Shown: positions 569 through 49,022 of the stretch, piece after piece
Numbering within the stretch: the stretch's first letter is position 1
Layout of the letters: each line of letters begins with the position of its first letter
Assembly (NCBI GenBank): GCA_965213685.1
Contig: CBDBZY010000064.1
Coordinates: forward strand, 192,001 to 256,000
Direction of reading: 5' to 3'
Length of the DNA stretch: 64,000 bases
Source of the DNA: a bacterium
GTDB lineage: Bacteria; UBA8248
Translations under genes and position numbers: made by a program
Notes under the pieces: generated by a model
Database searches by the model: none
What the model was told of the DNA's origin: nothing
What the model saw: only the letters and a program-made list of their open reading frames with translations

Positions 569-1162
569 TTACGAACGTAGACAGACGTTACGGCTCAAGA
601 AACCATCATTGGCTGGCAAGCAAATTCCCTCTTCGGTGTGTTTACGTACACTGTACCCAAATTTAAAGAAAATACTTGCATGTGATTTTGTAAACCTTTT
701 AAATGCCACACATAGTCCTGAGTACCAAAACCCCTGTCTAATGAGTTTTTGTGTAAGCTTGTAGTGCCTTTCTTTAAACTGTACAAAAGTACTACATATT
801 CTACCAATACGTACTAGTTGGGAAATATATACTCCATACGCTGGTTTAGCAGGGATATTTGAGCTCAAATGAGGGAAATTTATAACGTCAAATTGAAAAC
901 TATCCCTTTTGTCATAAACCGTAGTAGAGTATTTCCCATTGTTTATTGTAATAAGTACATCTAAGTACGACAATGTCGTGGGACTCTCTGTAGTATTTTT
1001 AAGCTGAAGTTCTGGGGGACATATGTCAGCAATTGCCCTTTCAAACCACCTGTTGTTAAGCGTCAGCAAATCATCGATATATCTCATTGTGTTATTAAAC
1101 TGCTTTGCCAATATTATGTTGTTCTTTAGTAGGGTCTTCATGTACCCATACTCATAATAAAA
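569..1162 (-). pseudogene. PLE reverse transcriptase C-terminal half (YIDD and thumb)
   Basis: FYYEYGYM..RYIDDLL..SYLDV..VYDKRDSF..YGVYISQLVR. Removing 1163-3480 restores in-frame LANLFL-FYYEY. Confidence 0.9.
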
Positions 1163-3480
1163 AAGTATGAAAAACATTTTCAAAAAATGTATAGGGATGT
1201 AGGGATGGCCGTGCCAAACACTACAGAAACTAGGTGTAGGGATGGCAGTGTGCAGGGAAGACATGTTATACAAAGACTACACAACTAACCCCATCCCTAC
1301 ATCTATTTTTTTTATATCTGAAATCATTCTGCGAGTTATGCTACAAGATTACTGGGAAGAGCAATTTTTGAGCCAAAAAAAAGATGTAGGGATGGGGTTA
1401 GTTGTGTAGTCTTTGTATAACATGTCTTCCCTGCACACTGCCATCCCTACACCTAGTTTCTGTAGTTTTTGGCACGGCCATCCCTACATCCCTATACATT
1501 TTTTGAAAATGTTTTTCATACTTGTTTGCATCCCTTTTTTTGCACAGGGGTACCATTAAAAAGTATTTTTCTTGCCACTGAAGCTTCTTTCAGAGTCCAG
1601 CAAACAAATCAGTGGTCATAACAGCCATTGCTAAGGCGGGTAGGGAGGGGCTTGAACACCATCATTTCTGAAGTTGGGGGCTGAGCCCCTCTAAAAATTC
1701 TTGAGCTAGAGTAGCTACATATGTACCTCACTGTATCTAACTGGCCAACTCATCCCCGCTACATAATAGTATAGTGAAGTAAGACGCTGTTCGAACGCGC
1801 CATCAGATATGAAGCAGCCTTTGCTATGTCTCGCGAACCTATAATTAATAGGCGTGGCTTCGCGAGGCCCGCCCTCACGTGCTTACCGTTTGCGCCACGT
1901 GACAGTAACTATTACAAAATGGTTTCCCAAATATGGGGAGTTGTCGGGGACTTCTAGTTTCTGCCCATTTGGGAACGTACTAAGAGTTTTATTAGCACAG
2001 ATCGTACTTGGTAGTGATTACAGTGGATCCGTGAAAGAACTACGGTGATTACTTCAGCCAGTTTTGAGATACGTTAGTCTAAAGAAATCTCTTAAGGGAG
2101 GGCGAGTCATGATTGCGTTCTTCGTCAATTACTCTACCGTCGCTTTCCCCCTACATTTACCAACGCTAAAACGACAGCAATTCTTTGGCGCGGTTGCAAA
2201 TTCGCTGGGAAAAATTCATATTTCCCGCTACCGTTGGACGTGCGGCGCTGTGTGGCGCCAACCGGTGAAGAGGTGGATGCTCGCCAAAGGGGAGTGAACT
2301 AGTTTATGCGCAATGGGTTGCTCGAATCTTGGCTTGCTTCTTTACGGCAGAATTTGCTACCGTTTTTCTAAATTCTGCAGCACGAAGAAAACGATTATAT
2401 GTCTAGAAAGAAAGATTTAGCACGGATTTTTAAAGCAAACTTAGATAGCCAACATGCTTAGTAGTCATCCACCGAAGTTTCGTCTCTGCAGCATTAGCCG
2501 TTATTGGCAAATGTTTTTTCTATAATTAGCGATATGCATATTGCGTAAATTTTATAATTCTATGAACCGACATATCACGCAAAACTATGTTATTTCGCTA
2601 ACAGGCATCATTAGGAGAATACAATAAAACATAAATCAGGCAAAATCATATCTTAGGGTCGTCCTGCCTTAAGGGAGGGCGAGTCATGATTGCGTTCTTC
2701 GTCAATTACTCTACCGTCGCTTTCCCCCTACATTTACCAACGCTAAAACGACAGCAATTCTTTGGCGCGGTTGCAAATTCGCTGGGAAAAATTCATATTT
2801 CCCGCTACCGTTGGACGTGCGGCGCTATGTGGCGCCAACCGGTGAAGAGGTGGATGCTCGCCAAAGGGGAGTGAACTAATTTATGCGCAATGGGTTGCTC
2901 GAGGCTTGGCTTGCTACTTTACGGCAGAATTTGCTACCATTTTTCTAAATTCTGCAGTACGAAGAAAACGATTATATGTCTAGAAAGAAAGATTTAGCAC
3001 GGATTTTTAAAGCAAACTTAGATAGCCAACATGCTTAGTAATCATCCACCGAAGTTTCGTCTCTGCAGCATTAGCCCGTATTGGCAAAATTTTTTTCTAT
3101 AATTAGCGATATGCATATTGCGTAACTTTTATAATTCTATGAACCGACATATCACGCAAAACTACGTTATTTCGCTAACAGGCATCATTAGGAGAATACA
3201 ATAAAAACAAATCAGGCAAAATCATGTCTTAGGGTCGTCCTGCCTTAAGAAGAAGAAGAAGAAGAATAGGAAGAAAGACAAAACGACCTTTGGAGAGTTT
3301 TCTGGTAGTAAGTCAAGGGATGCATTTTAGCTACTTGGGGGGTATTGTTGGGTAGAGAACCACTGGAATAGAATAGCTAGGGGTCCAGAAAGGCTTAGAA
3401 CGCGAGCGTTCGCGAGTTAAGAAAGCTTTCCTATGTACACGCACTATGGGCGTGTCGGCGCCATCCCTACATAGATCTGA
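1163..3480 (-). mobile_element. Non-autonomous Helitron-like element, subfamily A, with 3' fold-back 1163-1522
   Basis: Minus strand begins A|TCAGATCTATGTAGGGATGG and ends CATACTT; inserted in the RT codons without TSD; homologous to 14334-15588, 34788-37555 and 47776-49022. Confidence 0.8.
2096..3244 (+). mobile_element. Head-to-tail dimer of a ~573 bp TTAA-flanked non-autonomous DNA transposon (Kolobok-like)
   Basis: TTAA|GGGAGGGCGAGTC...GGGTCGTCCTGCC|TTAA twice (2096-2668, 2673-3244); single TTAA empty sites at ~15338 and ~48036. Confidence 0.75.
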
Positions 3481-5214
3481 TAAGAACAAGTTGGCTAGTA
3501 ATGGTGCACAATCTGTGCCCATAGGAATGCCCACACCTTGCCTATATACTCTATTCCCTACACTAATGTATATATTATCTATAAGGTATTCCACAAGTTT
3601 GATAAGAATCTCTTCTCTTATGCTGTATTTAGAAGACGATGTAGATGGAGTATCAGACCAAATTGCTGTACCTCTTTTATTGGCAATCAGGAAAACACTG
3701 TCTCTCACTCTATATGCTTCTTTAATGAGAGTAGTCAATGCATCTTTAAGAGATGTGTGTGGAATACTTGTATATAAAGTAGAAAAATCATAGCTATCAA
3801 AATGTTTGGCAGTAGAAAAATAATTAACATTATTTAAAGGTGAAAGGACCTGCTGGGAGTTATCAATAATCCAGAAGCAATTGACTCCTGTTCTGGAGTA
3901 AATACCGCTACAGTATTGTTTGAAGTGTGATACTACCTTACTCAAGCATGTAGTAAGTAGCTTTGACAGCTGCTTCATACTACATTTGTTAGAAGCAGCT
4001 ATGAATCTTGTGCCATACGGCTGTTTATGTAATTTAGGTAGCCAATAAAATGATGGCAAATGTCGAAAATCAGGTTCTACTTCAATTCTATTAATTGCCA
4101 TAAATTTCAGGAGGTCATTTACTACATTCATACAACCTCTAGCTTCACGATCATACGTACAAGTAGTTGTGAGCTCCTTGAGAACAACCTGTAGGTAGTA
4201 CCTTTTACACACTACTACAACATTGTTTGCTGCTTTGTCTGCTGGTACCAAAACATATTTAGACTGTAGCTCTTGCAAATAATCTAAATGCTTTCCAGGT
4301 TTCAGAACATGTTGCCTCCTTCTATTTATATGCTTTCTTCAGAGTAACCTGATTCGCTGTTCAATGCACTCATTAACCTTATGTTCCCATTCATTCAATA
4401 CTCTTAAATCTACCCTTTCCTTTCTTGACCACTCACGTTTGTATGATGCTACAGCCTCTCTACATATCTCCATATTTACTCTCCAATCAATGCCATTCTG
4501 TTCCCTATAAGATGGTCCCTTCATAATCAATGAGCGAAGTTTGGCCTCTCTAATAATATTCAGGTCACCCGTAACATGTCCAGCAGGCTCATAACAGTAT
4601 TTAGATGAAGAACATTCACAATGCATATCCTCAGTACCAACTTCAAAGTCCAATTCCTCCACTACTCTTTTGTGATTAAATAGCTTGCCTGAAATGGTTT
4701 TGGTATAACTCTTGGAGGTTTGCGATGGCTCAAAAAGGTAGGTACCGTATCCCTGACACACTTACTGTTGAGTATTTTAGGCAATTGTATCATTTCCATC
4801 CCTTTATTGTGGTACTGCACGATCATATATCTGGAATCCTTTTTCGAATATCTACCTCTACTATACGCATCATTTAAAGCCATATGCGAGGTTCCTTTCT
4901 TAAAGGCAATCAAATCCTTCACTAGTACCACAATGCGATGAGGTAAATCATGCACAGTAATCCACCTGTTAACAATATTCCATAATGCCTGCATGCACTT
5001 CCTAGGTAAACTGAGGACCAGACTCCTTAAACTAAAACAAAAACTGTAAGACTTATAATCTGATAACAAGGTCTCCAGTTGTACAGAAAAATCATCTAGA
5101 TCAATCTTTCTCCTACTCCTCTGTGGTTTACGTTTTCTGAACCTCCGTGGCTGTTTATTAAATAGTGCGTTCACAACTACTGCCTCCTTACATTTTGAAA
5201 TATTGCCAACCTTT
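3481..5214 (-). pseudogene. PLE linker and N-terminal half of reverse transcriptase; frameshift near 4710, in-frame TGA at 4339-4341
   Basis: ORFs 4662..5276, 4339..4761 and 3331..4278; PLE RT motifs up to GIPMGTDCAPLLANLFL, where the Helitron-like insertion begins. Confidence 0.9.
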
Positions 5215-6200
5215 CTGACGTTATCATTAAGACCATATGGGTAAATAGTACAAAGCTCCAAGCCCGTAGGCAGCAAATGGAGTGGGTGGGTGCTTTCTTT
5301 GATTAAGTGGACCTTATGAAATAAGGCTATTAAACTTTACTCATTCAGAGAATGTTATATAATTATGTCAGTTCAAGTACTATAATACCGATGATATACA
5401 CTTTTCAAAGGTGGTGTACACTTAAAACAAAAAAAACCTGTTAAGTATCGTACACACAGACGTATATATGAGCAATGACTCCAATTCAAGCATCGTTTGT
5501 TCACGTACCCACACAGTACAGTAAGCGTGAGCTAGCCGTATTCCGTGAACGTGCATGCGTGAGCGAAAGGGGGAGGGGAGGAAGAGAAAATTGTGCATGA
5601 GCGTTCATCGAATACGGTCTGCATCTGGTTCACGAGACTAACATGTGGGCAAACATATTACTCACTTCTTTGAAAGTAGGCATGACACGCTCGCTCCGCA
5701 CGCATCAACGCTGAGTTATGCAACAACGTACATTAACTAAGAATGATCAAGGTGGACCTCTGTGCAAACGGGGTGGGTGCGTACGCACCCTACGCACCCC
5801 CCCTGCCTACGGGCTTGAAGCTTCTACACCAAAAGTCCTCTCTCTCCAATCTTTTAGTGCTTAAACTATTCCTGTCACTAGATGTAATTTCTTCAATAGG
5901 CATAATAAGAATATCATCTTCACAATGGCCATCTGAACTAAAATGTTTGTACAGGTCAACTTTCTCAGCCGATTTCTATGATTATTCAACCTACTCCTCA
6001 ATTTCTGACTAGTTTCACCCACATATTGAACACCACACCTCTTACATGAAATGAGGTATATAACATTAGCCGTGTCACAATTCATTGAAGAGTTGGAACT
6101 GGTAACAGCATAACTCTTCTGTGTAACATTACTCACAAAAGTACTCCCTTGAGACACATGCCTACAAGTCTTACAACGTGAAGAACCACAAGTACAAACA
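5215..6200 (-). pseudogene. GIY-YIG endonuclease domain of the PLE ORF; frameshift near 5955, split by MITE 5259-5817
   Basis: ORF 5861..6481 gives CKTC..NVIYLISCKRCGVQYVGETSQKLRSRLNNH; the shifted frame continues LYKHF..MPIEEI..RLEREDFWCR and, after the MITE, ELCTIYPYGLND. Confidence 0.88.
5259..5817. mobile_element. MITE with CAAGCCCGTAGGCAG terminal inverted repeats
   Basis: TIRs at both ends; imperfect 6-bp TSD AAGCTC/AAGCTT; interrupts the GIY-YIG at CR|ELC. Confidence 0.8.
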
Positions 6201-6683
6201 GTACAAACAGCACAATCTACTGTATTGGTCTGTGTATGAATATCAGTTGTATCCCGTCCTGTATCAACAGGCTTTAAGGAAACAGCATTATTAGCACAAA
6301 CCGTGACATACAAACGGGTTGAGACTGCCTCTAAAGGACCCAGTCCAAGGTCCACCACCTTGGTTTGCCGGGCTAGCAGCCGCCCCCTATTAAACGACGT
6401 GAAGGCTGATGTGACTATAATGAAGAAAGAAGAAGAGGAAGAAAAGAAGAAAGACAAAAAGACAGAAAGGCAAGGTCCCAAAGAGCTATAAATGGAACGT
6501 GCATGGAGCCGCGACCAGGGTATGACACTGGTACTACTGCTTCCCCATACATCCTAGCTCCACAGCACCCAGAGAAAAAGCCAGTGAAAGCTAAAGCATA
6601 AAATATGCTTGATTCTAGTTTCAACACAGTACAGCCTGCCAGGGTAATAAAACCACCAAGCACAGGTCTGAATGTTGAAAGTA

Positions 6684-7000: not shown

Positions 7001-8718
7001 CAATAGTTCACTAAAATGTATTCTGTTCTTGCAAGCTTCTTTCAGAATCCCTCGAACAAATCATAACAGCCACTGCTACCCATCAGGAACAGAGTAGAAA
7101 GGGGCTTAACCCGAAGGAGCTTGACCACCATCACGCCATTTTGAAGTTGGGGGGCTGAGCCCCTCCAAATAGTCCTGAGCTAGAGTGACTACTTCACTAC
7201 ATGTATGTAACTGGCTAACTCATACCCGCTACATTAACGTTTTTGTACAATAGAAAGACGTTGCTCAAACCTCTCTCAAATCAGCGACAATGCCAGCCTA
7301 AAATTAATAGGCGTGGCTTCGCGAGGCCGTTCTCGCTAGGTGCAGAGAAAAAGCCGCACCCGAAATTACAGGTCCAACCCTTACGTCACTGTGGTGCTGT
7401 AATTCAAGGAAAGGAATGTTGTGAAGACAAAGAGGAATACAATTGACCTTATGCAGTGAAATGAATACACTAAGTCTCTTGAACAGAGATCCAGTTACAG
7501 TGACAGTTGAATAATCACTGACCAGGTGAAAAAGGCGTCCAGCGTGAGAGTAGAACCAAGGTGTGGTGACAGTAAGCAAGAATTCGATGCTACACTCCTA
7601 GCATGCTAGCAGCCCTTGGGAGTAGGCTGGACCCTGCCATGTTTACCTCTCTTTCGATACTCTTAGCCATCCTCATTTAGTACATGAAATAACATGTGCA
7701 TAGCACACCAGCTAGAAAGAGTCAAAGAAAGTTAAAAGAAAGGTAAATTAAGGCCATAACCCCCTATACATATACATGTAACACAATGAGCACAAGACAC
7801 CTGGATGCCCAGCCTTGAGAACTGGGGCGGTGGGTTGAAGATCTTTTATGGCGCCAACTCTCCAAGTGCTGTCTTGAACTCACATATACACAGACACAGA
7901 CATGAACAACAAAAACAGCCTCAAGACTTAGAAAAATAGCTCAGAGCAATTTAACACACCACAGCCTCTAGGCTTAGAAAATAACTTTGACATACAGTAG
8001 CCTCTAAGCTTAGAAAAATCTAAATTGGAAAACAACTAGAACAGCCTCAAGGTTTAGAAAAATAAATTTAACACACCAGCGTATACTGCGCATTGCGCAG
8101 CATTGCGCGATATCAAGTGACCCTCGATGGGCTGGTATAGTACAGTACTAGTACTTGACTTGCTTACTACGTAATTTTCATTACTGCGCTTGCGTTGTTT
8201 GTTCTAAAACGGCAGTTACTACACAGGAGGTTGGAAGCGGCGACGAAATCATGCGACTTAAATCCCACACATAAACAATAATTATTACTATACCGTCAAT
8301 GAGCATATTTAGCATATATACCAGTCGAGTTGGTAGGTTTGTGAAAGCGCTCCTGTAGCTATGCGTGTCAGGCAGGTATCGTCGCTATCTTCTACACTGG
8401 CCCTAGGCGCTACCTGTTTACATTGCTGAAGCTCTGTCGTGCGTTGTGCCGTAACTCGCCAATTACGCAACTGAGATGACCATAGCAAGGTTAAGATCAC
8501 GCTTTTTTTTGCTATGTACACATAAACGTAGCCTTACTGTGGGCTGTATAAGCATGGGACATACATACAAACGTATCCTTACTGTTGATTTCTCCTGTCT
8601 CAGCTCAGCTTAGTTTAAGAAATGGGCAGTCTCCATAGTGTATGTTCCAGGTGGTAGAGTGCTGTTCACTGAGTGACACCATTACCCCTATTGTGTGGGC
8701 AGGGCCATTACCTCAGTA

Positions 8719-14310: not shown

Positions 14311-14333
14311 CGCTTGTCCATTCCTTATATTTA

Positions 14334-15588
14334 CAAGTATGAAAAACATTTTCCAAAAACGTAGAAGGATGTAGGGATGGCAGTGCCAAAAACCACACAA
14401 ACTAGATATATGGATGGCAGTGTGCAGAGGACTACACAAGTAACCCCATCCCTACATCTTTTTTTCATCTTCGTTTCCTGCACAAAGATGTTTCCAGTAA
14501 TCTCACAGCAAAGTTTAGATACACGTTCTATTCAAAAAAAAAAGATGTAGGGATGGGGTTACTTGTGTAGTCCTCTGCACACTGCCATCCATATATCTAG
14601 TTTGTGTGGTTTTTGGCACTGCCATCCCTACATCCTTCTACATTTTTGGAAAATGTTTTTCATACTTGTTTGCATGCATTTTTTACTGTGCTACAGTACC
14701 ATACAGGAGGTTGTCCTTCTCTAAGTTAAGCACCAACACCTTCCTCCGCGTACGGAAAAATACGGCTGGCTTGCGAGGCTAAGTATGTTTCTTGGGATCA
14801 TACTCGGAAGTGAAGCTCAGTGATGCAACTTTGATTTTTGGGGGCGCCGTATCGTTTGGTAGAGAGATGCATAACGCTGCTTAGCGCTCAAAGTGGCTTG
14901 AAAAGCCTAACACGAGCGTCCGCTAGTTATAAAGAACATTTTTGTATGTACACGCGCAATTGGTACGTCGGTGCCATTCCTACACGAACAGTTTACCGAC
15001 TCTGAAACAACAGTGAAGATAAGGCTGAAACACAGGCCACTCGGCCGTTATCATGAGTAGCTTTTCTTGGAGAAATTACTAGGGCGTGGCTTCGTGTGAT
15101 TGCACGCGGCGCGCGAGGCCGGCCCTCACGTGCTTGCAACCTGTGTCACATGACAATTATTAGAAAATGGCTTCCAAATATGGGCATGTTGTCCAGTGCG
15201 TCTAGTTTCTGCTTATTTGAGAAGATACTAAGATGCCGTTAAGGCAGATCATACGCGGTAGTGATTACAGTTGATCTGTAAAGAACTACGGTGATTACTT
15301 CTGCCAGTTTCGAGAAAAGTCGTTTGAAAAAAATCTCTTAAGAAGAAGAAGAAGAAGAATCAGAAAGAAAAAGAAATCACCACTTCGCCCGTTTCCTGGC
15401 AGTGAGTCTAGGGATGCTTTTTAGCTATCTGGGGGATATTATTGGGTAGAGAAACGTCGGAATAGGATAGCTAGGTGTCTAGAAAGACTTAGAACACGAG
15501 CGTTCCCGAGTTAAGACGGATTTCCAATGTACGCACACTATGGGCGGACCGGCGCCATCCCTACATAGAGAGTCTACCGACTCTCTGA
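14334..15588 (-). mobile_element. Non-autonomous Helitron-like element, subfamily B, full length
   Basis: Minus strand A|TCAGAGAGTCGGTAGACTCTCT...CATACTTG|T; the empty site GTCAA|TAAAT at 27295/27296 shows no TSD. Confidence 0.88.
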
Positions 15589-18735: not shown

Positions 18736-19036
18736 ACGACCCTAAGACATGATTTTGCCTGATTTATGTTTTATTGTATTCTCCTAATGATGACTGTTAG
18801 CGAAATAACGTAGTTTTGCGTGATAAACTAGTTCACTCCCCTTTGGCGAGCATCCACCTCTTCATCGGTTGGCGCCACACAGCGCCGCACGTCCAACGGT
18901 AGCGGGAAATATGAATTTTTTCCCAGCGAATTTGCAACCGCGCCAAAGAATTGCTGTCGTTTTAGGGTTTTGTAAACGTAGGGAGAAAGCGACGGTAGAG
19001 TAATTGACGAAGAACGCAATCATGACTCGCCCTCCC
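18736..19036 (-). mobile_element. Internally deleted copy of the TTAA Kolobok-like element
   Basis: Reverse complement of both end regions of 2096-2668; followed by TTAA at 19037-19040. Confidence 0.8.
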
Positions 19037-19040
19037 TTAA

Positions 19041-19623
19041 GGGTGGTCGGACATGGATACTGTGCGGCTCTAAAGGAATGCGCAGATCTGGGCTTCGTGG
19101 TTAATTAGTGGAAGCCAAATGCAACAGCTGCACGCATTAGCGTAATAGATCTGGCCCGTCTAAGGTATGCAGCGTGCATAACTCTGTAAAACTCCGTAGC
19201 GCTTTTCGTGATCGGGACGCCCTTCCGTTGGCGTCATCGTGGGCAGGTACCGCAGACCGTAACGTGGAGTTTTTCCGAATTGAACGCTCCAAATTCGAGA
19301 AAAGTTCAAAAACCCGTGCTTGCGTACTAGATACAGTGAAAACGGCCACGTTAATGGCTAGCGCTTGCTCGAATAGCTCTGGTGCCTGAGTTTCAGGGAG
19401 GTAGGTAAATCGGTTAAGAAGTTTTATAGAGAAAGAGTCTAAGACTTTACCGCCGTAACTCTCGGTGACTAGGTAAGCTGGAGCTGTGAAACTTGGTATA
19501 CGAATTGCAGTGTCTGCAGTGTCTATAAGGGCCCAAACACGACATTGGTAGGTACCGTACTTTGCGAGATATAATAGCATAGCAACCACATGCCTCATTA
19601 ATGTTCATGATATCCGACCACCC
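19041..19623. mobile_element. TIR element GGGTGGTCGGACAT...ATATCCGACCACCC next to a TTAA
   Basis: 14-bp near-perfect inverted termini; left flank TTAA, right flank not conserved. Confidence 0.55.
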
Positions 19624-23059: not shown

Positions 23060-24993
23060 TTGGTTCTCTTGATATATGTTTCATTCAGGAACATTGGTTG
23101 CTACCTGATCAGCTGTATCTGCTGAATGAGTTTCACCCTGATTTTCAGTGTCTCAGTTAGTGGTATTGATGGTAGTGTGTTGTTGTGTGGACGGCCATAT
23201 GGGGGCTGTGCCATTTTGTATCGGCAATCTTTGTTTTCTTCCATTACACCACTTTTATGTAATTCTAATCGTTTTTGTGCTGTCAAATTGCATGATTCCT
23301 GTGGTGTTTCTGTCCTTGTGGTTTGTGTGTATATGCCTGCTCAGTCGCATTCATTTTACTTTGATGAGTACCTAAGTACAATTTGTGAGTTGGAGGGCTT
23401 CTTGGAGTTTCATAAGTGTGATGTGAATTTACTTGTTGGTGATTTTAATGTGGATTTTTCTCGGGGTGACAGTTTAACTTTTATGGATGAGTGGGATCTC
23501 TGTGCACGAGATCTTTCCTTTCCAGACGCTATTCAATTTACTTACGAGCGAGATGATGGGCTTGTAACATCTTGCGTTGATCATGTTCTGTGTTCTATTC
23601 ATAACTCAAATATAGTGTCACATGTTACAAGTGTGCTTCTGGGTTCTAATCTTTCTGACCATCATCCAATTGCATTTACTCTTAACGTTGATTGCTCTTT
23701 GATGGATACCACTTCTCATTCGTTTTCTTCCTCTCCTAGTCTGGACTGGGACAAAGCATCTAAAGAAGATCTTGATAATTACTCTAAGTTAGTTGCTCAG
23801 TCACTTCCACCGTTTCCTCCTGATGTTGCTTCTTGTTGTTCCCCTAATTGCTTGTCACATCTTAGTTGTATTGATCGCTTTGCTGATATGCTTATCACAT
23901 GCCTTTTGAAATGTGCAGCATCCTGCATTCAAGAAGTCGAAGCACAGAGGGCTGGTGGGCTGGAATGATGGGCTGAGGAAGTTGAGGCATGAAACCAATT
24001 TCTGGTATCATGTTTGGTTGGAAGCTGGATGCCCTAAATCTGGCGCTCTCTTCGATATAAAGAAGAAGGCAAAAAAGAGGTATAAATATGCAGCCTGTAA
24101 AGTCAAAAGGCAACAGATGTATTTTTTACGAGATAAGTTAGCTAAGTCTTACTGTCGAAAAAACCCTCGAGACTTTTGGTCACTAGTCAATAAATTGACA
24201 AAACCCAGAAATTCCAGATGTGTTCCAGTTGTTGATGGTGTTTCTGATGGTAATGACATTGCAAACTTGTGGGCTTCTCAGTTGCAGGGCCTTCTCAATA
24301 CGCACAGTTCCTCTTTACGGCACACTTTGCTTCAAGCTTTAAATATCTCTTTATCTCTTGATCATCTTTCAACTGTTCATGTCCCCATTGATGATGTACT
24401 GAATACAATCCATCTAATCAAGCCTAGCAAGGTGGATTCTGCACAGCTATCTGCTGAGCATTTAAGGTACTCTGCACTCTCCATTGCTGGTCCTCTGTCT
24501 GCTTTTTTCACAGCTGTTCTTCGTCATGGATACATGCCCAAGTGTATTCGAGATTGTACGTTGGTCCCCATACCAAAAAATAACAAAGATCCTTCTAGCA
24601 GTAAAAACTACAGAGTAATTGCAATTGCATCTCTCTTGAGTAAAGTCCTGGAAAGAATTATACTCTCCAGATATGAATCCTACTTTACAAGTAGTGCTTT
24701 GCAATTTGGCTTCAAGAAAGGTCATTCAACAACTCTTTGCACAGGACTCATAAAGAATATTGTTTCTAGGTATATACGTAAAGGATCTAAGGTTTATGGC
24801 TGTTTTTTAGATGCAAGCAAAGCATTTGATTTGGTGGACCATGGCATTGTGTTTGATATTCTTCATTCTCGTGGTCTCCCAACTCCTATTCTTCGTTTTC
24901 TTCTAAGTTGGTATAGTAGTCAACAAATGTGTGTTCACTGGAATTCTTGTGTGTCTCATTCGTTTTCTGTTTCTAATGGTGTTCGTCAAGGTA
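23060..24993 (+). mobile_element. Inverted near-identical copy of the same LINE, cut at GVRQG by a CACTG MITE
   Basis: ORFs 23126..23968 and 23913..25055 mirror 22246..22881 and 21222..22301; the spacer 23060-23144 encodes DICFIQEHWL. Confidence 0.9.
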
Positions 24994-26010: not shown

Positions 26011-29000
26011 TTAAAATATCTTCATACCTTCGCTCTAAAGGGCCCATACAATACCCTTTTCTGCTAAACGCAGCAAGCATAGCAAGTACCTCTTACGCAC
26101 AAAACCCTCCTCTCCTGAATATTAGGTAAGAACCATAATGAGTAGGGTGATAGACATAGTTTATGGTGTCGTAGTGTCGTTCCAGCCCACTGACTGACAT
26201 TGTGCCTGGTGTGTTCCGCAGTGGACTAGTCACGCACGTTTTGAATCCAGCCCTCCTTCACTCTACGCGGGTTGTGACACAGAGTGTTGGGGTTTCGTCC
26301 TTTAATATCAGCTAGAACTCGCATGTACTTTCCAGGAGCCGCGCGTGGTGGTGCTGCAGAACTGAGGGCGCTTAGCGAGGTGCAAAAGTGTAAGAAAGCG
26401 CTTGGTGGGTAAAGCGTATGTTGCGTTCTATGGTATTACAGTATGCCACATTTTTGCCCCTGTATATTGCATTGTATTTTCGTCCATGTTGCGTACTAAA
26501 TGCCAGTACGTTGCAGCGCGTACGGAGGCACCAAGCACACAAGATTCTACCGGTTTCCGAAAGCAATAGGTGTTGGCAACCAGAGGGCGCGACTGGGCTC
26601 CAACCGAGAGTAGTCTCGCGTAGCCAGACTCTCTCCGCAAGCGAGAGTCTGGTCATGCAGGACTTGTTCCGGACACCCCCCCGGGTGTGGTTGCTGGCCA
26701 CAATGTTATGTAGCGACATTCCTAGCAAGATTCCTAGCAAGACATGCACGCGTAGTAAGCCTCACCTGTGTTGAATTCCACATATGGTTACTTCAAACAA
26801 AATGTTGTTTTCTATTGCACATAACCATCTGTACCTGTTAGTTTTAGCTTTGTAATTAGTATATAAGGTTACACATCCTGTGTTAGCAGATTGCTATTAT
26901 GTGTATCCCTGCATAAATATGCAAAGTATTATTGAAAGCTTCCATTACCAATTTTGACACAGATCACACCCCATAATATTTAGTGTTGCACAGTACATTA
27001 TAAACGTGGTTTTGTACTCTGCGGCGAGGAGGAACGCCAGGTACACACTGATTACATTACGTAATATAATAATTTGTCAATGACGTCTTGCGTTCCATTG
27101 ATGACGTTTACATTTACTACACGTACATGCGGATGTATATAGCGACGGCATAGAGCAGAAGCACTGGAGTTGGTTATGCCGAGGCTTAGTAGCGACTAGC
27201 CTCATACCCAGGCGTTCCGAGGGTGAGTCCGTTATTAGAAATACGAAGTACAATAGCACAATAGCTAGTGACGTACTTCAGTGCAATATAGTCAATAAAT
27301 ATAAGGAATGGACAAGACAGAACAAGGACAGTGAACTAGAGCCAAACATGTAATGCACGTTTAAAAGACAACAATGATGCAGGATGCAGATCCAGAGATG
27401 CATGGTGGGAGACTGTTCCACAGAAGGATGGAATGAGGAACAAAAGAAAACATGAAATAATTGGTAGAGCAATGTACAGGCTGGAGGCACAGTGGAGTAT
27501 TGGTTCTAGTGCTGACACTGGAATTGCGATCAAAGATACCTGATGGGAAGTACATTGAGTCATTAAGTATGGCATAAACAACACATAGCTTCATAATGTG
27601 CCTCCTAGATTGCAAATTTGCAATGTAGGCAAGTTAAGCTCCCTCAACATGGTAGTGTATCATAAGTTCTACTTCTTCAGGCAGATTTTTGCAGCCAGCT
27701 TTGGAGTTTTTTCCAAGTGTTCAATTGAGCCCTTTGTGAAGGGGTCCCATACAATGCAACAGTACTGGGCATATTAATGATGCATATAGTTTCCGGAGAA
27801 CTGTAGTGTTGCAGTGTTTGTAAAACTTGCGGTAGACAAAACCCAGTTTTTGTCTTGTTTTGGAGACCACAGAATGAATATGTGCAGCCCAATTTAGGTT
27901 GTGAGTGATAAGAACACCCAAGTACTTCACTTCAAAGACACGATTTAGTTTAGTTGCATTAACAAACAGGTCGACTGCATGACATTCAGGGTTCTTAGAT
28001 CGTTTGGAGATATAAACATCCACTGACACTTATCTTTAATAAATTTCGGATGGTTACTACTGGACCAGTTTCCAATTAAGTCAATGTCCCTTTGTACAAT
28101 TGCAAAGTCCTCACTGCTGCAAATAGGCCTGGAATAACAGATGTCATCTGCATAGAGTGCAAGAGTGGAATCCTTCGATAGTGGGAGATCACAAATATCA
28201 TCAATGAAAAAGATGAACAACAGCGGACCAAGTATTGACCCTTGAGGCACACCCAATAGAACAGGAAGTAACCTGGATATTGCCTCTCCGATAGCAACTT
28301 GCTTAAATCTACCAGTTAAGTAGTCCTGGAGCCACTGGAACAACAGAGGAGGTAAATCTAGCTTAGAAAGTTTCTGAAACAGTGCCCTATCGAAGGCCTT
28401 TCTTAAGTCAAAAAAGACTGCACATATATCCACACCAGTATGCAACTTTGCATTCCAGCAATGTGTAATGTAAGCTAGAGCAGCGCTAGTGGATTTCCCT
28501 GAGCAGAACCCCCACTGGTTTGGAGAGAGTGGGCACTAGTTGTGCATGAAGTCACGCAGAATATTAAAGATATGTCGTTCTAAAATCTTGCTGATAATGG
28601 GTAGAAGCGTAATTGGACGATAGTTGGATGGCAGCTGAAGATGTTTTCCCTTGGGTATAGGAATAACTTTTCCAACTTTCCACTCCGATGGAATTTTGCC
28701 CATTGCAAGAAAATGTTAAATAGCAGCATTAGTGCTGGCCCAATACACTGGGCAACCAACTGTAACATTTCAACAGTAGTTATTGCAGGTGACTTTTGGG
28801 TTTCAGGGAAGAAATCAGGCACACAACTTCCTCTTCAGAGATGTCAATTAATGATATATCTGAGGTGGAGTCACTCAGATGATGAGATGGAGAATGTTGA
28901 AGAGGAGAATCTGATTTGTTAAGGCTCTCACCAAAGAAAACGTTCAGTACTTCAGCTTTCTCAGCGTCTTCCGACACCAACGTATTATCAGAAACCAGTG

Positions 29001-31694
29001 TAGGAATATGACTTGAAACAGTGTTCGAAGTGTTCACTATTTTCCAAAAACTTCTGAGGATCATTTGCCATTCTGGAGAGGTTACTGAAAAAAACAGCTC
29101 TGGATGACCTAATGAGTTTGACCACTCGATTTCTCATCTCTTTATACTTTTTCCAAGCAGATACACTCTGCGATATCTTGAACTTACGATACAAGTGATC
29201 TCTTTTAATAGCACACATAATATTTTTGTTAATCCAAAGCAAATAACGCCGGCATTGCTGTTTAGCTCGTGGAACACACTGTTGCATTATGTCTAAAAAG
29301 ATCTTTTTCCAGTTTTGCCATGACTCATTTAAATTACTCGTCAAGATTATTTTCCAGTCAGTGTTTCTTATCAATGCACATGCTTTGCCGTAGCCCACAC
29401 TAGTCTCATCAGTTAGACTCTCTAAGAGAAAGAAAGTGGAAGAAAAAGTGGACTCTTGTGGGACTCGAACCTAGGACTCTCAACTTTCTATATTCTGACG
29501 CTCTTCCGACTTCTGACAGCAGGCAAAGTCGATACCATATCCTGACAACAGTCTCTGCTGATCTGCAATGAAGCTCCCTGCTGCCCCAACAGACAAGATG
29601 GTTGTTAAAGTCTAGGGCAACCAACCTAGCCTAGCCTAGTTAGTCTGAGGGGCAGTGGCTGAAGCAGGAGACCCATTAAGGGTCTGTTTTTTTAAAAGTA
29701 TAGACACATGATAACCCCTGGTTGGTGTATGATGGGGGAAAACAAACATGACAAACAAACAGCCTGCCTGCTGGCTGGGCTCTTTAGCTCTGACTCAGTC
29801 GGTAGAATGTCAGCATATAAAGCTGAGATTCGTGGGTTCAGGTCCTGCAGGAGTCCACTTTTTCTTCCACTTTCTTTCCATCACTCAGATGATACGGCAG
29901 TGAGTTTTTCCTCCCTCATACATAACCAGGCTGGGCTGGGTTTGGTTGCCTCAGACTTTATTAACCACTTTGTCGATTGAGGGGTTATCATGTGTCTCTC
30001 TAAGAGAGTCTGACATGTCATAGGGCATTCGTGTTGCTTAGTCAGGCCTGGTGTACTTGTAGTAACCAGAGGAGGTTGGAAGCGGTTACGTGATCGCCCA
30101 AGCCGTGTACATTATGCCCATTGAGAAGAGTTTGACATTATTTCAGGGTGACGAAAGGGAAGCAGACTGTACCATACTACGAAAAATGCTTTCAGGCCAT
30201 CAACCCCTTCCAACCCCTGGGTAATTGGCGAGTTACGGCACAACGCACGACAGAGCTTCAGCAATGTAAACAGGTAGCGCCTAGGGCCAGTGTAGAAGAT
30301 AGCGACGATACCTGCCTGACACGCATAGCTACAGGAGCGCTTTCACAAACCTACCAACTCGGCTGGTATATATGCTAAATATGCTCATTGACGGTATAGT
30401 AATTGTTTATGTGTGGGATTTAAGTCACATGATTTCGTCGCCGCTTCCAACCTCCTGTGTAGTAACTGCCGTTCTAGCACAAACAACGCAAGCGCAGTAA
30501 TGAAAATTACGTAGTAAGCAAGTCAAGTACTAGTACTGTACTATACTAGCCCATCGAGGGTCACGTGATATCGCGCAATGCTGCGCAATGCGCAGTATAC
30601 GCTGGTGTGTTAAATTTATTTTTCTAAGCCTTGAGGCTGTTCTAGTTGTTTTCCAATTTAGATTTTTCTAAGCTTAGAGGCTACTGTATGTCAAAGTTAT
30701 TTTCTAAGCCTAGAGGCTGTGGTGTGATAAATTGCTCTGAGCTATTTTTCTAAGCCTTGAGGCTGTTTTTGTTGTTAATGTCTGTGTCTGTGTATATGTG
30801 AGTTCAAGACAACACTTGGGTGTATGGGAAGAGTTGGCGCCATAAAAGATCTTCAACCCACCGCCCCAGTTCTCAAGGCTGGGCATCCAGGTGTCTTGTG
30901 CTCATTGTGTTACATGTATACGTATAGGGGGTTATGGCCTTAATTCACCTTTCTTTTAACTTTCTTTGACTCTTTCTAGCTGGTGTGCTATGCACATATT
31001 ATTTCATGTACTAAAGGATGAGGATGGCTAAGAGTATCGAAAGAGACGGTAAACATGGCAGGGTCCAGCCTACTCCCAAGGGCTGCTAGCATGCTAAGAG
31101 TGTAGCATCGAGTTCTTGCTTACTGTCACCACACCTTGGTTCTACTCTCACACTGGACGCCTTTTTCACCTGGTCAGTGATTATTCAACTGTCACTGTAA
31201 CTGGATCTCTGTTCAAGAGACTTAGTGTATTCATTTCACTGCATAAGGTCAATTGTATTCCTCTTCGTCTTCACAACATTCCTTCCCTTGAATTACAGCA
31301 CCACAGTGACGTAAGGGTTGGACCTGTAATTTCGGGTGCGGCTTTTTCTCTGCACCTAGCAAGAACGGCCTCGCGAAGCCACGCCTATTAATTTTAGGCT
31401 GGCGTTGTCGCTGATTTGAGAGAGGTTTGAGCAGCGTCTTTCTATTGTACAAAAACGTTAATGTAGCGGGTATGAGTTAGCCAGTTAGACACATGTAGTG
31501 AAGTAGTCACTCTAGCTCAGGACTTTTTGGAGGGGCTCAGCCCCCCAACTTCAAAATGGCGTGATGGTGGTCAAGCTCCTTCCAGTTAAGCCCCTTTCTA
31601 CTCTGTTCCTGATGGGTAGCAGTGGCTGTTATGATTTGTTCGAGGGATTCTGAAAGAAGCTTGCAAGAACAGAATACATTTTAGTGAACTATTG
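26011..31694 (-). repeat. Right arm of large inverted segmental duplication (partner 7001-17330)
   Basis: Lacks insertions 14334-15588 and 16053-16547, most of 8467-10553, and 11358-12249. Confidence 0.9.
27320..29384 (-). mobile_element. Mirror copy of the CR1/L2-group LINE, endonuclease part deleted
   Basis: Reverse complement of 12250-14310. Confidence 0.9.
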
Positions 31695-32045
31695 CCAGGA
31701 AAAAGGATACAAACAAGTATTAAAAACATTTTTTTAAATGTTGAAAGATGTAGGGATGGCTGTGCCAAAAACCACAGAAACTAGGTGTAGGGATGTGCAG
31801 GCAAGACATGTTGTTATACAAAGACTACACAAGTGACCCCATCCCTACATTTTTTGCTTCAAACTGTTGTTCTCAATACCTAATGGCATGCATAGCCAGC
31901 AAAATCATATCAGGTATAAAAAATGATGTAGGGATGGGGTTACTTGTGTAGTCTTTGTATAACATGTCTTGCCTGCACACTGCCATCCCTACACCTAGTT
32001 TCTGTGGTTTTTGGCACAGCTGTCCCTACATCTTTCAAACATGTT
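31370..32045 (+). mobile_element. Older Helitron-like copy (subfamily A), 3' part with fold-back ~31714-32045
   Basis: Homologous to 1163-1870 in reverse; inverted arms with ATGTAGGGATGG motifs. Confidence 0.7.
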
Positions 32046-32920
32046 TCTAGAATTTAGTTCAATGATCAGCACACAACTTGCAGCACAACATACTACTTAT
32101 CCAAAAATTGTGGTGTTTTGTCAAACATATAATATGATTTCTCACAACTTAATTAAAAAGAAGTTGAACAACATACCACTACTAGTGTGGTGACAACTTC
32201 AACCCAAACAATATGACATCAGAATAACTACAGACGTGAAATGTAGTGAAAATGTAAGGCAAATAGAGTCCATGCAAAAATGAAATGATATGCAAGACTA
32301 AATGGAGAGTACTCGCATTTGTAGTGACCGTTTAATAGTCAAAGATATGAACGCATTGTGTATAATGCTTTTTAAAAAGTTCAAAGCATCCAGTTGCTTT
32401 CGTGCTGTTAGCTGTGTGTATGTGTGTACAGACTTAATGAAGTACTGTATACACCCAAAATTGGACACACTTGACAGCAGGCCACAAAGCTAATCTCGCT
32501 GTAAGTATTATCAAAGTCTTCTAGTCTCACTAAGTGTAGCTGTTCTACATACTGAGCTCTCGCAAGGCCTGGCCAGACACTGTAGCTACAGTCCATAATG
32601 TATGCTTACAGTTACATGTACATTGTATGTCATGCTTAATGAACTAAAACCTGTCATTTAGTTTCTCAATCCTCCCACACGTCTTAAGATGAATTTCCTG
32701 CATATTTGCACAGTGTCAAGTGTTAAACAAATGTGCAACTGAGAAAACCAAGGTTAAAATAACCATGGAATTTTTGCAGTGGGCATGTATGTCTTGTGCT
32801 TATACATGGCCCACAGCAAGGCTGTGTTTGTGTATGTGTACCCTGCTTATGTAGAGATCACTTCCTACCATTGTTCCTTCCTTCTGTACTACAGCTACAG
32901 GTGTGTCTCCTCACCAAACT

Positions 32921-34621: not shown

Positions 34622-35441
34622 ATAATTATTGTGCCTTTATGTATACTTTGATGTGAGGTACTTATTATTCAAATGTCCAGTGCTGAACATACCGCCTGCT
34701 GCATATGCATATCATACGTATAGCTCTCCCTTAACATGATAGGAGGGATGGTTAGTTTTAACCGCGGAATGGATATATATATATATAAAGTATAAAAACT
34801 TTTTCAAAAAATGTAGAGGGATGTAGGGATGGCAGTGCCAAAAACTACAGAAACTAGGTGTAGGGATGGCAGTGGGCAGGCAAGACATGTTATACAAAGA
34901 CTACACAAGTAACCCTATCCCTACATCTTTTTTTTATACCTGAAATCATTCTGCGAGTTATGCTACAAGATTACTGGGAAGAGCAATTCTGAGCTAGAAA
35001 AAAAAAAGATGTAGGGATGGGGTTACTTGTGTAGTCTTTGTATAACATGTCTTGCCTGCCCACTGCCATCCCTACACCTAGTTTCTGTAGTTTTTGGCAC
35101 TGCCATCCCTACATCCCTCTACATTTTTTGAAAATGTTTTTATACTTGTTTGCAACCTTTTTTTGCCCAAGGGTAACATGAAAAATTATATTTTTCTTGC
35201 CACTGATGCTTCTTTCAGAGTCGAGCAAACAAATCGGTGATCATAACAGCCGTTGTTACCCGTCAGGAACTGAGGGGGAGGGGCTGGAACACCATCACTT
35301 CTGGAGTTGGGGGGCTGAGACCCTCTGAAAATTCCTGAGCTAGAGTAGCTACCTCACCGTATCTAACTGGCCAACTCATACCCGCTACATTAATAGTATA
35401 GTGAAGTAAGACGCTGCTCGAACACGCCACTTTCAGCGACT

Positions 35442-36271
35442 TATATCTTACACTTATATCGTGATCTTGGGGTCATTCTAACGAGCAACCTGAGCTGGAA
35501 TGAACACTACAAGCATTTACTGTCTAATGCATACATAATCTTAAGTCTCATTCGACGCACTTTTATCGCCACTCATTTCCCTCAAAACAAGAGAACTCTA
35601 TACCTTCTACTGGTTCGTTCACGACTGATGTACTGCTCTCCTGTTTGGAGACCTCAATTTATTAAGGATATAAAAGTCATTGAGAGGGTGCAGAGACGAG
35701 CCACAAAGTTCATCCTTGATGATTATGGATCAGACTACAAGAGTCATCTGACTAGCCTCAATGATGCAATTTGAACTCAATGACATTATTTTCTTTGTGA
35801 GCTCTCTAAAGAACCCAACTGCCTCATTCAATATTCGGAACCATGTTATATTCTGTAGTAGCACCACAAGGTCCTCTTATGCTCTTAAACTGCAACATCC
35901 AAAGTCACCATCTAATTTATCTCGCCATTTTTTCTTCAATCGACTACCAAGGCTCTGGAACTCCTTACCCATCATAGACTTGAGCCTCTCTGTCTCTTCC
36001 ATTAAAAAACTCCTGAGACTTTTTTTCTGGGACCATTTTGTTCATAATTTTCATCCTGACAATCCTTGTACTTACCACTTTATATGTCCATGTAGCAGAT
36101 ATTCCTCATCCCCTATCATCACTAATTTTAGTACACTACATAACACTGGCCATTAATCAACTGGATTAATGGACCATCAGTGCAGCTGTCTTTGTATCAC
36201 CTGTACATGTATTCATTTATTGTGTATCCTGCACTGTAAAGCATAATAATAATAATAATAATAATAATAAT
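35442..36271 (+). mobile_element. 5'-truncated CR1-like LINE 3' end with (TAA)n tail, flanked by 137-bp direct repeats
   Basis: DLGV..SNLSW, LVRS.L.YCSPVW, IERVQRRATKF, FFNRLPRLWNSLP; repeats 35305-35441 and 36272-36408. Confidence 0.88.
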
Positions 36272-36681
36272 AGTTGGGGGGCTGAGACCCTCTAAAAATT
36301 CCTGAGCTAGAGTAGCTACCTCACCGTATCTAACTGGCCAACTCATACCCGCTACATTAATAGTATAGTGAAGTAAGACGCTGCTCGAAAACGCCACTTT
36401 CAGCGACTACAACGGCCATTGCAACCTAAAATTAATAGGCGTGGCTTCGTGAGGCCCGCCCTCACGTGCTAACCGTTTGCGCCACGTGACGATAACTATT
36501 ACAAAATGGTTTCCAAATATGGGAAGTTGTCCGAGACTTCTAGTTTCTGCCCATTTGGAAAGGTACTAAGAGTTTTATTAGCGCAGATCGTACTTGGTAG
36601 TGATTACAGTGGATCCGTGAAAGAACTACGATGATTACTTCAGCCAGTTTTGAGGTACGTTAGTCTAAACAAATCTCTTAA

Positions 36682-37359
36682 GGGAGGGCGAGTCATGATT
36701 GCGTTCTTCGTCAATTACTCTACCGTCGCTTTCCCCCTACTTTTACCAACGCTAAAACGACAGCAATTCTTTGGCGCGGTTGCAAATTCGCTGGGAAAAA
36801 ATTCATATTTCCCGCTACCGTTGGACGTGCAGCGCTGTGTCTTGTATTACGTCATAACTAAAATTCAAAGTTGTCCGGACAATATACGGAAAACCAACGT
36901 GGTACTGACAAACGATTCCGAATCCTGTTTTAAATTTAGGGGGAGTATCCAACCGGTGAAGAGGTGGATGCTCGCCAAAGTGGAGTGAACTAGTTTATGC
37001 GCAATGGGTTGCTCGAGGCTTGGCTTGCTACTTTATGGCAGAATTTGCTACCGTTTTTCTAAATTCTGCAGCACGAAGAAAATGATTATATGTCTAGAAA
37101 GAAAGATTTAGCACGGATTTTTAAAGCAAACGTAGATAGCCAACATGCTTAGTAATCATCCACCGAAGTTTCGTCTCTGCAGCATTAGCCGTTATTGGCG
37201 AATTTCTTTTTCTATAATTAGCGATATGCATATTGCGTAAATTTATAATTCTATGAACCGACATATCACGCAAAACTACGTTATTTCGCTAACAGGCATC
37301 ATTAGGAGAATACAATAAAACATAAATCAGGCAAAATCATGTCTTAGGGTCGTCCTGCC
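36682..37359 (+). mobile_element. Monomeric TTAA Kolobok-like element at the same site as the dimer, with a ~110 bp internal insertion
   Basis: TTAA|GGGAGGGCG...CGTCCTGCC|TTAA. Confidence 0.8.
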
Positions 37360-37556
37360 TTAAGAAGAAGAAGAATAGGAAGAAAGACAAAACGACCTTT
37401 GGAGAGTTTTCTGGTAGTAAGTCAAGAGATGCATTTTAGCTACTTGAGGGGTATTGTTGGGTAGAGAACCACAGGAATAGAATAGCTAGGGGCCCAGAAA
37501 GGCTTAGAACGCGAGCGTTCGCAAGTTAAGAAGGCTTTCCTATGTACACGCACTAG

Positions 37557-40254: not shown

Positions 40255-40687
40255 TTGAAGTTAGTAAAGGTGTTGGTGCTGAACTTAGAGAGAGACAACC
40301 TCTTGTATGGTAGTGTGGTACAACAAAAAGGCACACAAACAAGTATGAAAAACATTCTCCAAAAATGCATATATGGATGTAGGGATGGCAGTGCCAAAAA
40401 CCACATAAACTAGATATATGGATGTGCAGGCAACACAGATGACTACACAAGTAACCCCATCCCTACATCATTTTTAAAAATAGAACATGTATCTAAGATT
40501 TGTTGTCAGAGTACTGGAAACTGCTTTGGGCAAATAACAAAAATGAAAAATGATGTAGGGATGGGGTTACTTGTGTAGTCATTTATGTTGCCTGCACACT
40601 GCCATCCATATATCTAGTTTGTGTGGTTTTTGGCACTGCCATCCCTACATCCATATATACATTTTTGGAGAATGTTTTTCATACTTG
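40255..40687 (+). mobile_element. Helitron-like subfamily B, 3' part with fold-back 40340-40687
   Basis: Homologous to 48615-49022; ends CATACTTG|T. Confidence 0.78.

Positions 40688-47775: not shown

Positions 47776-49022
<1,247 letters not shown>

Follow-up and report, generated by a model that had tools for sequence, protein, structure and literature searches.

A Helitron-like family with a long, co-varying 3′ fold-back in probably eukaryotic DNA binned with a bacterial genome

What kind of transposon combines the sharp ends of a Helitron with a 3′-terminal hairpin of 330-360 bp? The question is raised by a repeat family in a 64,000-nt stretch of DNA, hereafter the window (positions 192001-256000 of contig C64, in an assembly of 71 contigs), where the segment 14334-15588 is one complete copy. 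An initial annotation took the family to be Helitron-like, which our analysis bears out (sharp TC...CTT(G) ends, an A|T target and no target-site duplication, TSD), and went on to propose a distinct rolling-circle or rolling-hairpin class, which the evidence below does not favor. We put at roughly 80% the probability of a more conservative joint reading: that the copies are non-autonomous derivatives of HLE2 Helitron-like elements (Helitron2/Helentron) residing in eukaryotic, probably sponge, DNA, that the fold-back is an integral part of them, that they are mobilized in trans, and that the two arms of the fold-back are kept complementary.

BLAST and nhmmer recovered all six copies that had been listed in the window, plus further fragments. 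Two of them, which we call B-type, are complete: 14334-15588 (minus strand, 1255 bp) and 47776-49022 (plus strand, 1247 bp). They are 92.6% identical, and both read A|TCAGAGAGTC...CATACTTG|T, the outer A and T belonging to the host. In the minus-strand copy, the 5′ TC lies at 15588-15587, the 5′ hairpin at 15567-15586 and the fold-back at 14334-14668, with the 3′ end ...CATACTTG at 14334. These elements appear to be non-coding; none of the three longest frames of copy 47776-49022 had a Pfam match.

The same ends recur throughout the assembly. Searches with nhmmer, using profiles of the ~70 nt at either end of the element, gave 167 5′-end matches and 239 3′-arm matches. Position 1 is reached by 95 of the 5′-end matches, and all 95 start with TC; the preceding host base is A in 87 of them (T in only four), and the base at −2 is T in 70. 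On the other side, 161 of the 239 3′-arm matches reach the terminus, after which 79 continue into a conserved internal junction (left arms) and 82 pass into external sequence (true 3′ ends). The external ends read CTTG|T (41), CTT|T (24) or otherwise (17). The 3′ end had been described as a CTRR hallmark, but CTTG is not CTRR, none of the 82 ends is CTRR, and a second variant, CTT|T, exists. The host base after the 3′ end is T in 65 of 67 cases and the next is A in 48 of 67; thus, with the bases at −2 and −1, the preferred target is TA|TA. The two ends are asymmetric (TCAGAG... versus ...ACTTG) and have no direct repeat in common.

Comparison of filled and empty sites confirmed that insertion leaves no duplication. 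When flanks were searched separately, uninserted paralogues were found for seven of 47 complete elements; six are clean, with A^T or A^C at the junction, one is too diverged to read, and a duplication was present in none. CTT-end elements are involved in two of the six clean pairs. For the 14334-15588 copy, the empty site at 27295-27296 is exact, as the initial annotation had reported (filled, ...attta|CAAG...TCTGA|ttgac; empty, ...attta|ttgac), and two more empty paralogues lie on the same contig. The junction carries the 1-nt ambiguity found for every Helitron, in that one flanking A/T can be assigned to element or host. A second empty site in the window, 44369-44370, corresponds to a filled element outside it (C64:102683-103865), with flanks 99-100% identical. 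Paralogous empty sites were not found for the copies at 1163-3480, 34788-37555, 47776-49022 and 40267-40687.

For the first of these, the interrupted gene itself provides the junction. The reverse-transcriptase (RT) frame runs in phase across 1162/3481, where 3481-4338 is exactly 286 codons and a codon begins at 1162, and a paralogous RT at C41:472292-473191 has both halves contiguous with zero gap; the claim that the frame could be restored was therefore correct. The interrupted retroelement (572-6553, minus strand) carries a GIY-YIG nuclease domain (5861-6553) upstream of the RT (3481-4338 plus 572-1162, with a YIDD motif), and looks like a Penelope-like element with a nuclease on the N-terminal side.

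Outside the assembly, three public sequencing runs with sponge-associated or coded labels, one of which may be the source sample, each hold more than 100 contigs that break at the 5′ boundary, 15589, into unrelated A/T-rich flanks. A single contig in one run (X17) skips 14332-15588, and was not counted as evidence, the shorter side being only 20 nt. Two copies at separate loci are 99.58% identical over 1190 bp, and the family has thus been active recently. Head-to-tail junctions, with a 3′ end joined to a 5′ end, were absent from the assembly.

The feature that sets the family apart is the fold-back. In copy 47776-49022 it occupies 48690-49022 (plus strand) and consists of a left arm that repeats the last ~133 nt in inverted orientation, a ~67-nt loop and a right arm that is the true 3′ terminus. 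Folded as DNA, this segment reaches −164.3 kcal/mol (z = −29.9), and none of 100 shuffled sequences folded as well. The description of the last ~130-140 bp as duplicated in an inverted arm, giving a terminal hairpin of 330-360 bp, holds family-wide, as 46 of 47 complete elements have a fold-back of this length. The assembly contains 94 inverted arm pairs in total, most spanning 290-386 bp.

A palindrome of this kind could in principle be an independent transposable element of the miniature inverted-repeat type (MITE) that had inserted into a Helitron ancestor, once or repeatedly. One arm pair alone, at C56:64088-64377, resembles such an element, with end-like, variable flanks on both sides, and 25 of the 94 pairs, mostly partial arms, lack a recognizable internal junction. 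However, 66 of the 94 pairs, drawn from every subfamily, have the conserved internal junction on exactly one side, the other side being the true terminus, and no TSD flanks the hairpin. The outer right end coincides with the 3′ terminus of the element at verified empty sites, the arms bear the same repeat as the 5′ end, and relatives that encode a transposase carry homologous left-arm sequence at the same place (see below). We therefore conclude from the one-sided junction that the fold-back is an integral part of the element and not a nested MITE, an origin we consider most improbable; nor is the whole element a MITE or Foldback-type transposon with terminal inverted repeats, given its asymmetric ends and the absence of TSDs at empty sites.

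In one place, C64:414621-416808, a pair of family elements is arranged tail to tail, with partial fold-backs that overlap and the internal junction on both outer sides. One element may have inserted into the 3′ palindrome of the other, or the arrangement may be a recombination product.

The left end is built from smaller parts. A hairpin whose 8-bp stem closes a 4-nt loop begins at element nt 3 (47778-47797, plus strand; AGAGAGTC-GGTA-GACTCTCT). It is perfect, as first described, with a predicted energy of −7.2 kcal/mol that two of 200 shuffles matched. Across the family, 55 of 95 complete 5′ ends have it without a mismatch, and a further 20 keep seven of its eight pairs. Directly behind it, at nt 23-35, is the left copy of a 13-nt subterminal inverted repeat (ATGTAGGGATGGC; 47798-47810, plus strand), whose inverted partner lies 36-48 nt from the 3′ end (48975-48987, plus strand; GCCATCCCTACAT in most copies). 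The left copy includes a reiterated 10-nt motif, GTAGGGATGG. Chance would give 2.4 matches to it in the window, and there are 39, of which 36 fall within family copies, with one at the left end and four to six in each fold-back; the motif is a plausible candidate for a protein-binding repeat. The interior holds a (TTC)n microsatellite (47990-48037, plus strand) and a degenerate second copy of the 5′ terminal sequence, an internal direct repeat of the left end (48349-48405, plus strand; positions 5-61 of the 5′-end model, E = 1.3e-10). The small 3′ stem-loop, with a 7-bp stem and a 3-nt loop, is placed where it had been reported, 12 nt from the end (48994-49010, plus strand), and its sequence is conserved across copies, but it is weak when folded alone (−3.7 kcal/mol; 18 of 200 shuffles were as good).

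The 5′ hairpin had been regarded as atypical. In fact, passages of four papers describe the same layout for Helitron2 and HINE elements, in which it accompanies a subterminal inverted repeat, a microsatellite and a 3′ stem (PMC5148889, PMC4067079, PMC7492417, PMC11417382).

Is there a transposase that could move such elements? The window holds none, as had been noted, but an autonomous-type relative lies on the same contig ~80 kb upstream, at C64:108232-114488, the one locus where models for Helitron_like_N and PIF1 both match. Its frames match DUF6570 (E = 7e-11), Helitron_like_N, PIF1 with 2B and UvrD_C parts, and OTU in Pfam, and contain the motifs HYH and YVSGY, the latter with two tyrosines. 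The gene aligns end to end with an intact 2159-aa homologue (P0001) at 80% identity with at least six frame changes, and is therefore a dead copy. No Exo_endo_phos domain was found in seven frames of the gene region, and among the homologues listed an endonuclease is absent from the 92 closest, appearing only in distant ones at ~25% identity.

Three features tie this gene to the family. A family 3′ end (...TTACTTG|T), 79-91% identical to family arms, is found at C64:116640 in the orientation of the gene. Non-autonomous copies repeat a 113-bp leader (C64:107343-107455) ~240 bp in from their 5′ ends. Finally, a palindromic MITE has the same relative position in the transposase-gene copy and in the longer copies that we call A-type. 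The autonomous-type copy has a left arm of only ~25 nt. Related genes on two short contigs from a scan of other metagenomes (L007 and L008; 69-70% amino acid identity), neither of which reaches a 5′ end, are followed ~1 kb downstream of the open reading frame by left-arm-like sequence with a homologue of the internal junction, then by a 24-bp stem and the shared end ...ACACTT.

The search for long copies with a Rep-helicase between the same ends, which the initial annotation had suggested, gave a linked Rep-Pif1-OTU gene with the family 3′ end but with the 5′ terminus missing. No intact two-ended autonomous copy was found: tblastn on all 71 contigs gave this one locus and a 60-aa helicase-like match, and scans of genome contigs with the protein and with the 34-nt 5′ end gave nothing. 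A second Helitron_like_N fragment, immediately inside a family 5′ end at C64:1180814-1181050, is 43.6% identical to the main gene over 39 aa (E = 7e-4) and adds little.

We next consider where the family belongs. Sections of PMC11417382 describe HLE1 elements as having TC...hairpin-CTRR ends and an A|T target, and HLE2 elements as having short inverted repeats, a 3′ stem-loop, a T|T target and DUF6570 as a marker. The linked autonomous-type copy, rather than any copy with both family ends, belongs to the HLE2 clade and carries its marker. A quickly built tree of 20 proteins, in which the Fusarium row is long-branched and curated references are absent, grouped the linked protein with proteins bearing DUF6570, endonuclease or UCH domains, and a branch with a Shimodaira-Hasegawa-like approximate likelihood-ratio (SH-aLRT) value of 100 separated these from plant Helitrons. 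The stem-loop after the right repeat is as in HLE2, and hairpins at both ends are as in Helitron2. Because no endonuclease is present, we assign the transposase to the Helitron2 type within HLE2; for the same reason the linked gene does not qualify as a Helentron proper, which has an AP endonuclease fusion. The 5′-TC and A|T insertion without TSD are as in HLE1, and the CTRR end is not. Thus, the transposase and end layout are those of HLE2, the target and 5′-TC are HLE1-like, and the 3′ end fits neither.

This mixture leaves room for the view that the family is a canonical HLE1 (Helitron1) non-autonomous family, served by an HLE1 transposase elsewhere, and that the HLE2-type gene is a neighbor that acquired a family 3′ end. 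The invariant TC (95 of 95), the A at −1 (87 of 95), the T at +1 (65 of 67), the lack of a TSD and the small stem 12 nt from the 3′ end are all as this view expects, and the autonomous-type copy does lack the family 5′ end. In contrast, the elements end in CTT(G) rather than CTRR; the 5′ hairpin, 13-nt subterminal inverted repeat and microsatellite make up a Helitron2/HINE layout; and the HLE2-type gene shares not only a 3′ arm but also a 5′ leader and a MITE position with the family, while in relatives from other samples genes of the same type have arm-like sequence downstream. The assembly yielded no HLE1-type Rep, and its sole other Helitron_like_N fragment is the one just inside a family 5′ end. 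We regard an HLE1 origin as unlikely.

Comparison with individual systems gives the same mixed picture. Canonical HLE1 Helitrons, such as Helraiser (PDB 7LCC), resemble the family in the 5′-TC, the insertion between A and T without TSD, the stem 10-12 nt from the 3′ end and the combination of Rep with a Pif1-like helicase; Helraiser matches the helicase part of the linked protein with E = 2.5e-17. The family differs from them in lacking CTRR, in having a 5′ hairpin and subterminal inverted repeat, and in a linked transposase that carries DUF6570 and falls outside plant Helitrons. FoHeli1 and FoHeli2 of Fusarium oxysporum, which are of Helitron2 type, share other features: in the parts of PMC5148889 drawn on here, they start with TCAG in a 5′-terminal hairpin, repeat a 5′ sequence in inverted form 38-51 bp from the 3′ end and have a hairpin after it, encode Rep-Hel without an endonuclease domain and have non-autonomous derivatives. 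A Fusarium protein is also among the homologues of the linked transposase. According to the same parts of that paper, FoHeli elements insert after TNAT and before T and end in ATTTT, whereas the present family uses TA|TA and CTT(G); their inverted repeat lies inside the 5′ hairpin, whereas here it follows the hairpin; and here the 3′ hairpin is enlarged to a ~133-bp stem and the linked protein has a C-terminal OTU domain (PMC5148889).

Excerpts on HINE and DINE-1-like elements give a layout of subterminal inverted repeat, 5′ inverted repeat, microsatellite and 3′ palindrome with no target modification, and the non-coding copies described here share it (PMC4067079, PMC7492417). In detail, such elements have no coding capacity and carry a 12-15 bp subterminal inverted repeat whose 3′ copy is placed ~38-60 bp before the terminus, a hairpin or inverted repeat at the 5′ end, a microsatellite with tandem repeats and a palindrome 8-35 bp from the 3′ end, leave the target unmodified, and far outnumber their autonomous partner (same excerpts). 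As described there, they differ in their TT or T-rich sites with variable terminal Ts, in partners with an AP endonuclease, which is absent here, and in 3′ palindromes of 5-10 bp rather than ~133 bp (PMC4067079, PMC7492417). The empty sites (A^T) and the consensus TA|TA match neither this target nor the T|T of HLE2. ‘HLE2-reverse’ or proto-Helentron elements, in the sections of PMC11417382 noted above, have a 5′ stem-loop upstream of the left inverted repeat and autonomous members with DUF6570, as here, but no 3′ stem-loop, whereas the present family has stem-loops at both ends as well as the long fold-back. Replitrons, for which part of PMC10288648 describes short direct terminal repeats and a Rep-only transposase, were ruled out by the absence of a direct terminal repeat and the Pif1 helicase in the linked protein. 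We therefore place the family in the known HLE2 group, with an unusual long, co-varying 3′ hairpin. Measured against published descriptions rather than Repbase or Dfam entries, three of its features are non-standard: insertion at A|T (TA|TA), a 3′ end in CTT(G) and the fold-back. A literature search on long Helitron 3′ palindromes returned nothing relevant, and no description of Helitron termini in sponges was found in the literature searched.

How do the two arms stay alike? The comparison drew on 50 of the 94 pairs, in which both arms are complete, the span is 300-380 bp and the orientation is unambiguous. Complementarity between the two arms of a copy averages 95.5%, although arms of different subfamilies are only 60-84% alike. 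In the largest subfamily, arms of the same copy agree at 97.9% and arms of different copies at 92.5%. Variants relative to the consensus of that subfamily are mirrored in both arms in 141 cases and unmirrored in 77, whereas variants private to one copy are mirrored in 10 and unmirrored in 38. For the six window copies, RNAalifold predicted 150 pairs, and compensatory double changes occur in 19 of these. Thus, complementarity is restored in the propagating lineage and decays after insertion. The loop, too, can change orientation: it is inverted relative to the body in two of 18 scorable main-subfamily copies (16:2; 10 loops were too diverged) and in two of two copies of a small subfamily, and for the relative orientation of B-type and main-subfamily loops the alignment scores were 26 versus 17.

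The most likely explanation, in our view, is that the arms pair in a single-stranded intermediate and are corrected or re-templated there, which would account for mirrored shared variants, unmirrored private ones and the occasional loop inversion. A bolder reading, replication by a rolling hairpin, would make the family a class of its own: the excised strand would fold at its paired 3′ end and self-prime the second strand, and hairpin transfer would regenerate the arms. Pairing does extend to the terminal nucleotide, so that a linear single strand would have a primed 3′-OH; the arms co-vary, the loop is found in both orientations and the fold-back is kept in 46 of 47 complete elements. In parvovirus hairpin transfer, flip and flop forms arise about equally in each round, but the main-subfamily loop is skewed 16:2. 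Moreover, the linked gene encodes an ordinary Helitron transposase of the Rep-Pif1 kind, whose lineage needs no long hairpin, as the left arm is ~25 nt in the autonomous-type copy here and the stem is 24 bp in L007 and L008. One complete 410-bp element with an empty-site partner has no left arm at all, and the 5′ hairpin is only 8 bp. The skew, the ordinary protein and the autonomous relatives with a stem of only ~25 bp make obligatory rolling-hairpin replication unlikely, and a class defined by it very unlikely; with the published 5′ layout and the linked DUF6570 Rep-Pif1-OTU gene, they are also why the proposal of a distinct class was set aside.

A possible role of the fold-back is that of a termination signal or second-strand origin. 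That it works in the transposition cycle more generally, with the ~133-bp duplex in single-stranded DNA acting as second-strand origin or primer, or being mismatch-corrected in each round, seems to us doubtful. Were it true, the mirrored variants would be a natural genomic record of movement as single-stranded DNA, and the family would bridge rolling-circle and hairpin-primed replication, its duplex being comparable to the single-strand origin of a plasmid or to a self-priming hairpin.

Several observations weigh against placing the family among trans-mobilized HLE2 derivatives with actively matched arms. In no copy does the transposase lie between both family ends: the autonomous-type copy has a unique 316 bp in place of the family 5′ terminus, and a family 5′ end nearby is wrongly oriented. 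It is also the only such gene in 3.66 Mb of host-like sequence, and a pseudogene. The A|T target with 5′-TC is the canonical Helitron1 signature and not the T|T reported for HLE2, and the HLE1 side of our tree consists of plant proteins and one further sequence, with no Repbase or Dfam references. HLE2 elements have an inverted repeat of 11-18 nt with its left copy at the 5′ end and its right copy subterminal; the right copy of the 13-nt repeat is so placed, but the left copy lies 22 nt inside the element. The 5′ hairpin is conserved with little co-variation (two compensatory versus 38 one-sided changes). Finally, the pattern in the arms is also what selection for pairing would produce, or gene conversion acting in master copies.

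With these points included in the estimate given at the outset, we propose the following model for the HLE2-derived family, in which nicking, unwinding, termination and pasting are taken from the Helraiser model. A ~2150-aa Rep (HUH, two-tyrosine)-Pif1 helicase-OTU protein would act in trans, recognizing at the left end the TC, the 8-bp hairpin and then the repeat containing GTAGGGATGG. It would nick between the host A and the element T, unwind 5′ to 3′, and stop at the right end, marked by the inverted copy of the left-end repeat, the small stem and CTT or CTTG; the single strand would then be pasted between the A and T of TA|TA without duplication. The fold-back is built around the shorter hairpin already present in autonomous relatives. 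If each transposition passes through single-stranded DNA, the arms could pair and have mismatches corrected, or one arm could be re-templated from the other, and after insertion the arms would decay independently.

The family offers, in its co-varying 133-bp hairpin, a testable handle on the fate of the single-stranded Helitron intermediate. It also mixes HLE1 and HLE2 criteria in its ends, target and transposase, so that annotation tools based on ends would misfile or miss it.

Whose DNA is this? All family copies are confined to five contigs (C64, C18, C56, C41 and C16) with 43-50% GC and a combined length of 3.66 Mb, whereas most other contigs have ~65% GC. The five contigs bear retroelements, MITEs and the one Helitron-type gene, whose nearest named homologues are from the freshwater sponge Ephydatia muelleri (~60% identity). 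Public runs that contain the window stretch are labeled as sponge metagenome or with coded organism names. On the basis of this homology and these labels, the window is probably eukaryotic, sponge-host DNA binned with a bacterial genome, which we offer as a lead rather than a demonstration. In practical terms, the family flags about 3.7 Mb of host DNA within a bacterial genome bin. The bin is scored as 94% complete and 3.7% contaminated despite ~3.66 Mb of low-GC, transposon-rich, eukaryote-like DNA beside a ~65% GC, bacterial remainder; host DNA thus slips past the marker-based check.

Segments of C64 at ~56-70 kb, ~159-172 kb, ~206-219 kb and ~236 kb versus ~103 kb are paralogues, 97-100% identical, that differ by the presence or absence of family insertions; they are either recent segmental duplications or haplotypes collapsed or expanded in assembly. 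Within the window, a large imperfect inverted duplication spans 6684-31694 (center 23060-23144), its arms 96-100% complementary, with differences due to insertions, the 14334-15588 element among them. The right edge is at 31694, and a family fold-back begins 6 bp away, at 31700; in the other arm homology ends at 7001, the start of a 997-bp tandem duplication. The palindrome may be genuine, or the assembly may have joined two haplotypes as a fold-back.

The remaining copies in the window are incomplete or altered. The A-type copy inside the RT frame (1163-3480, minus strand, 2318 bp) has lost its 5′ hairpin (TCAGATCT...), has the CTT variant of the 3′ end and contains an internal 577-bp tandem duplication with a palindromic MITE-like segment. 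A second A-type copy (34788-37555, minus strand) is 5′-truncated and begins at about position 35-49 of the full element. Two further 5′-truncated copies, both on the plus strand, lie at 31367-32046, with a fold-back at 31700-32046 whose outer right arm is degenerate, and at 40267-40687, which amounts to the last ~420 bp with a complete fold-back and CTTG|T end. A diverged short relative (42666-42954, plus strand) consists of a 5′ end (TCAGGGAGTGGGTA...; 42666-42733) and a partial 3′ arm (42903-42954). Smaller remnants are a solo 38-bp fragment of the 5′ end (55046-55083, plus strand) and an extra family fragment at 7009-7328. The palindromic MITE-like repeat, ~300-400 bp long and either captured or nested at its shared position in the A-type and autonomous-type copies, also occurs in the window at 18736-19042, inside 34788-37555 as well as 1163-3480, and at 2944-3339 of a further sequence (L005); it has 87 BLAST matches in the assembly.

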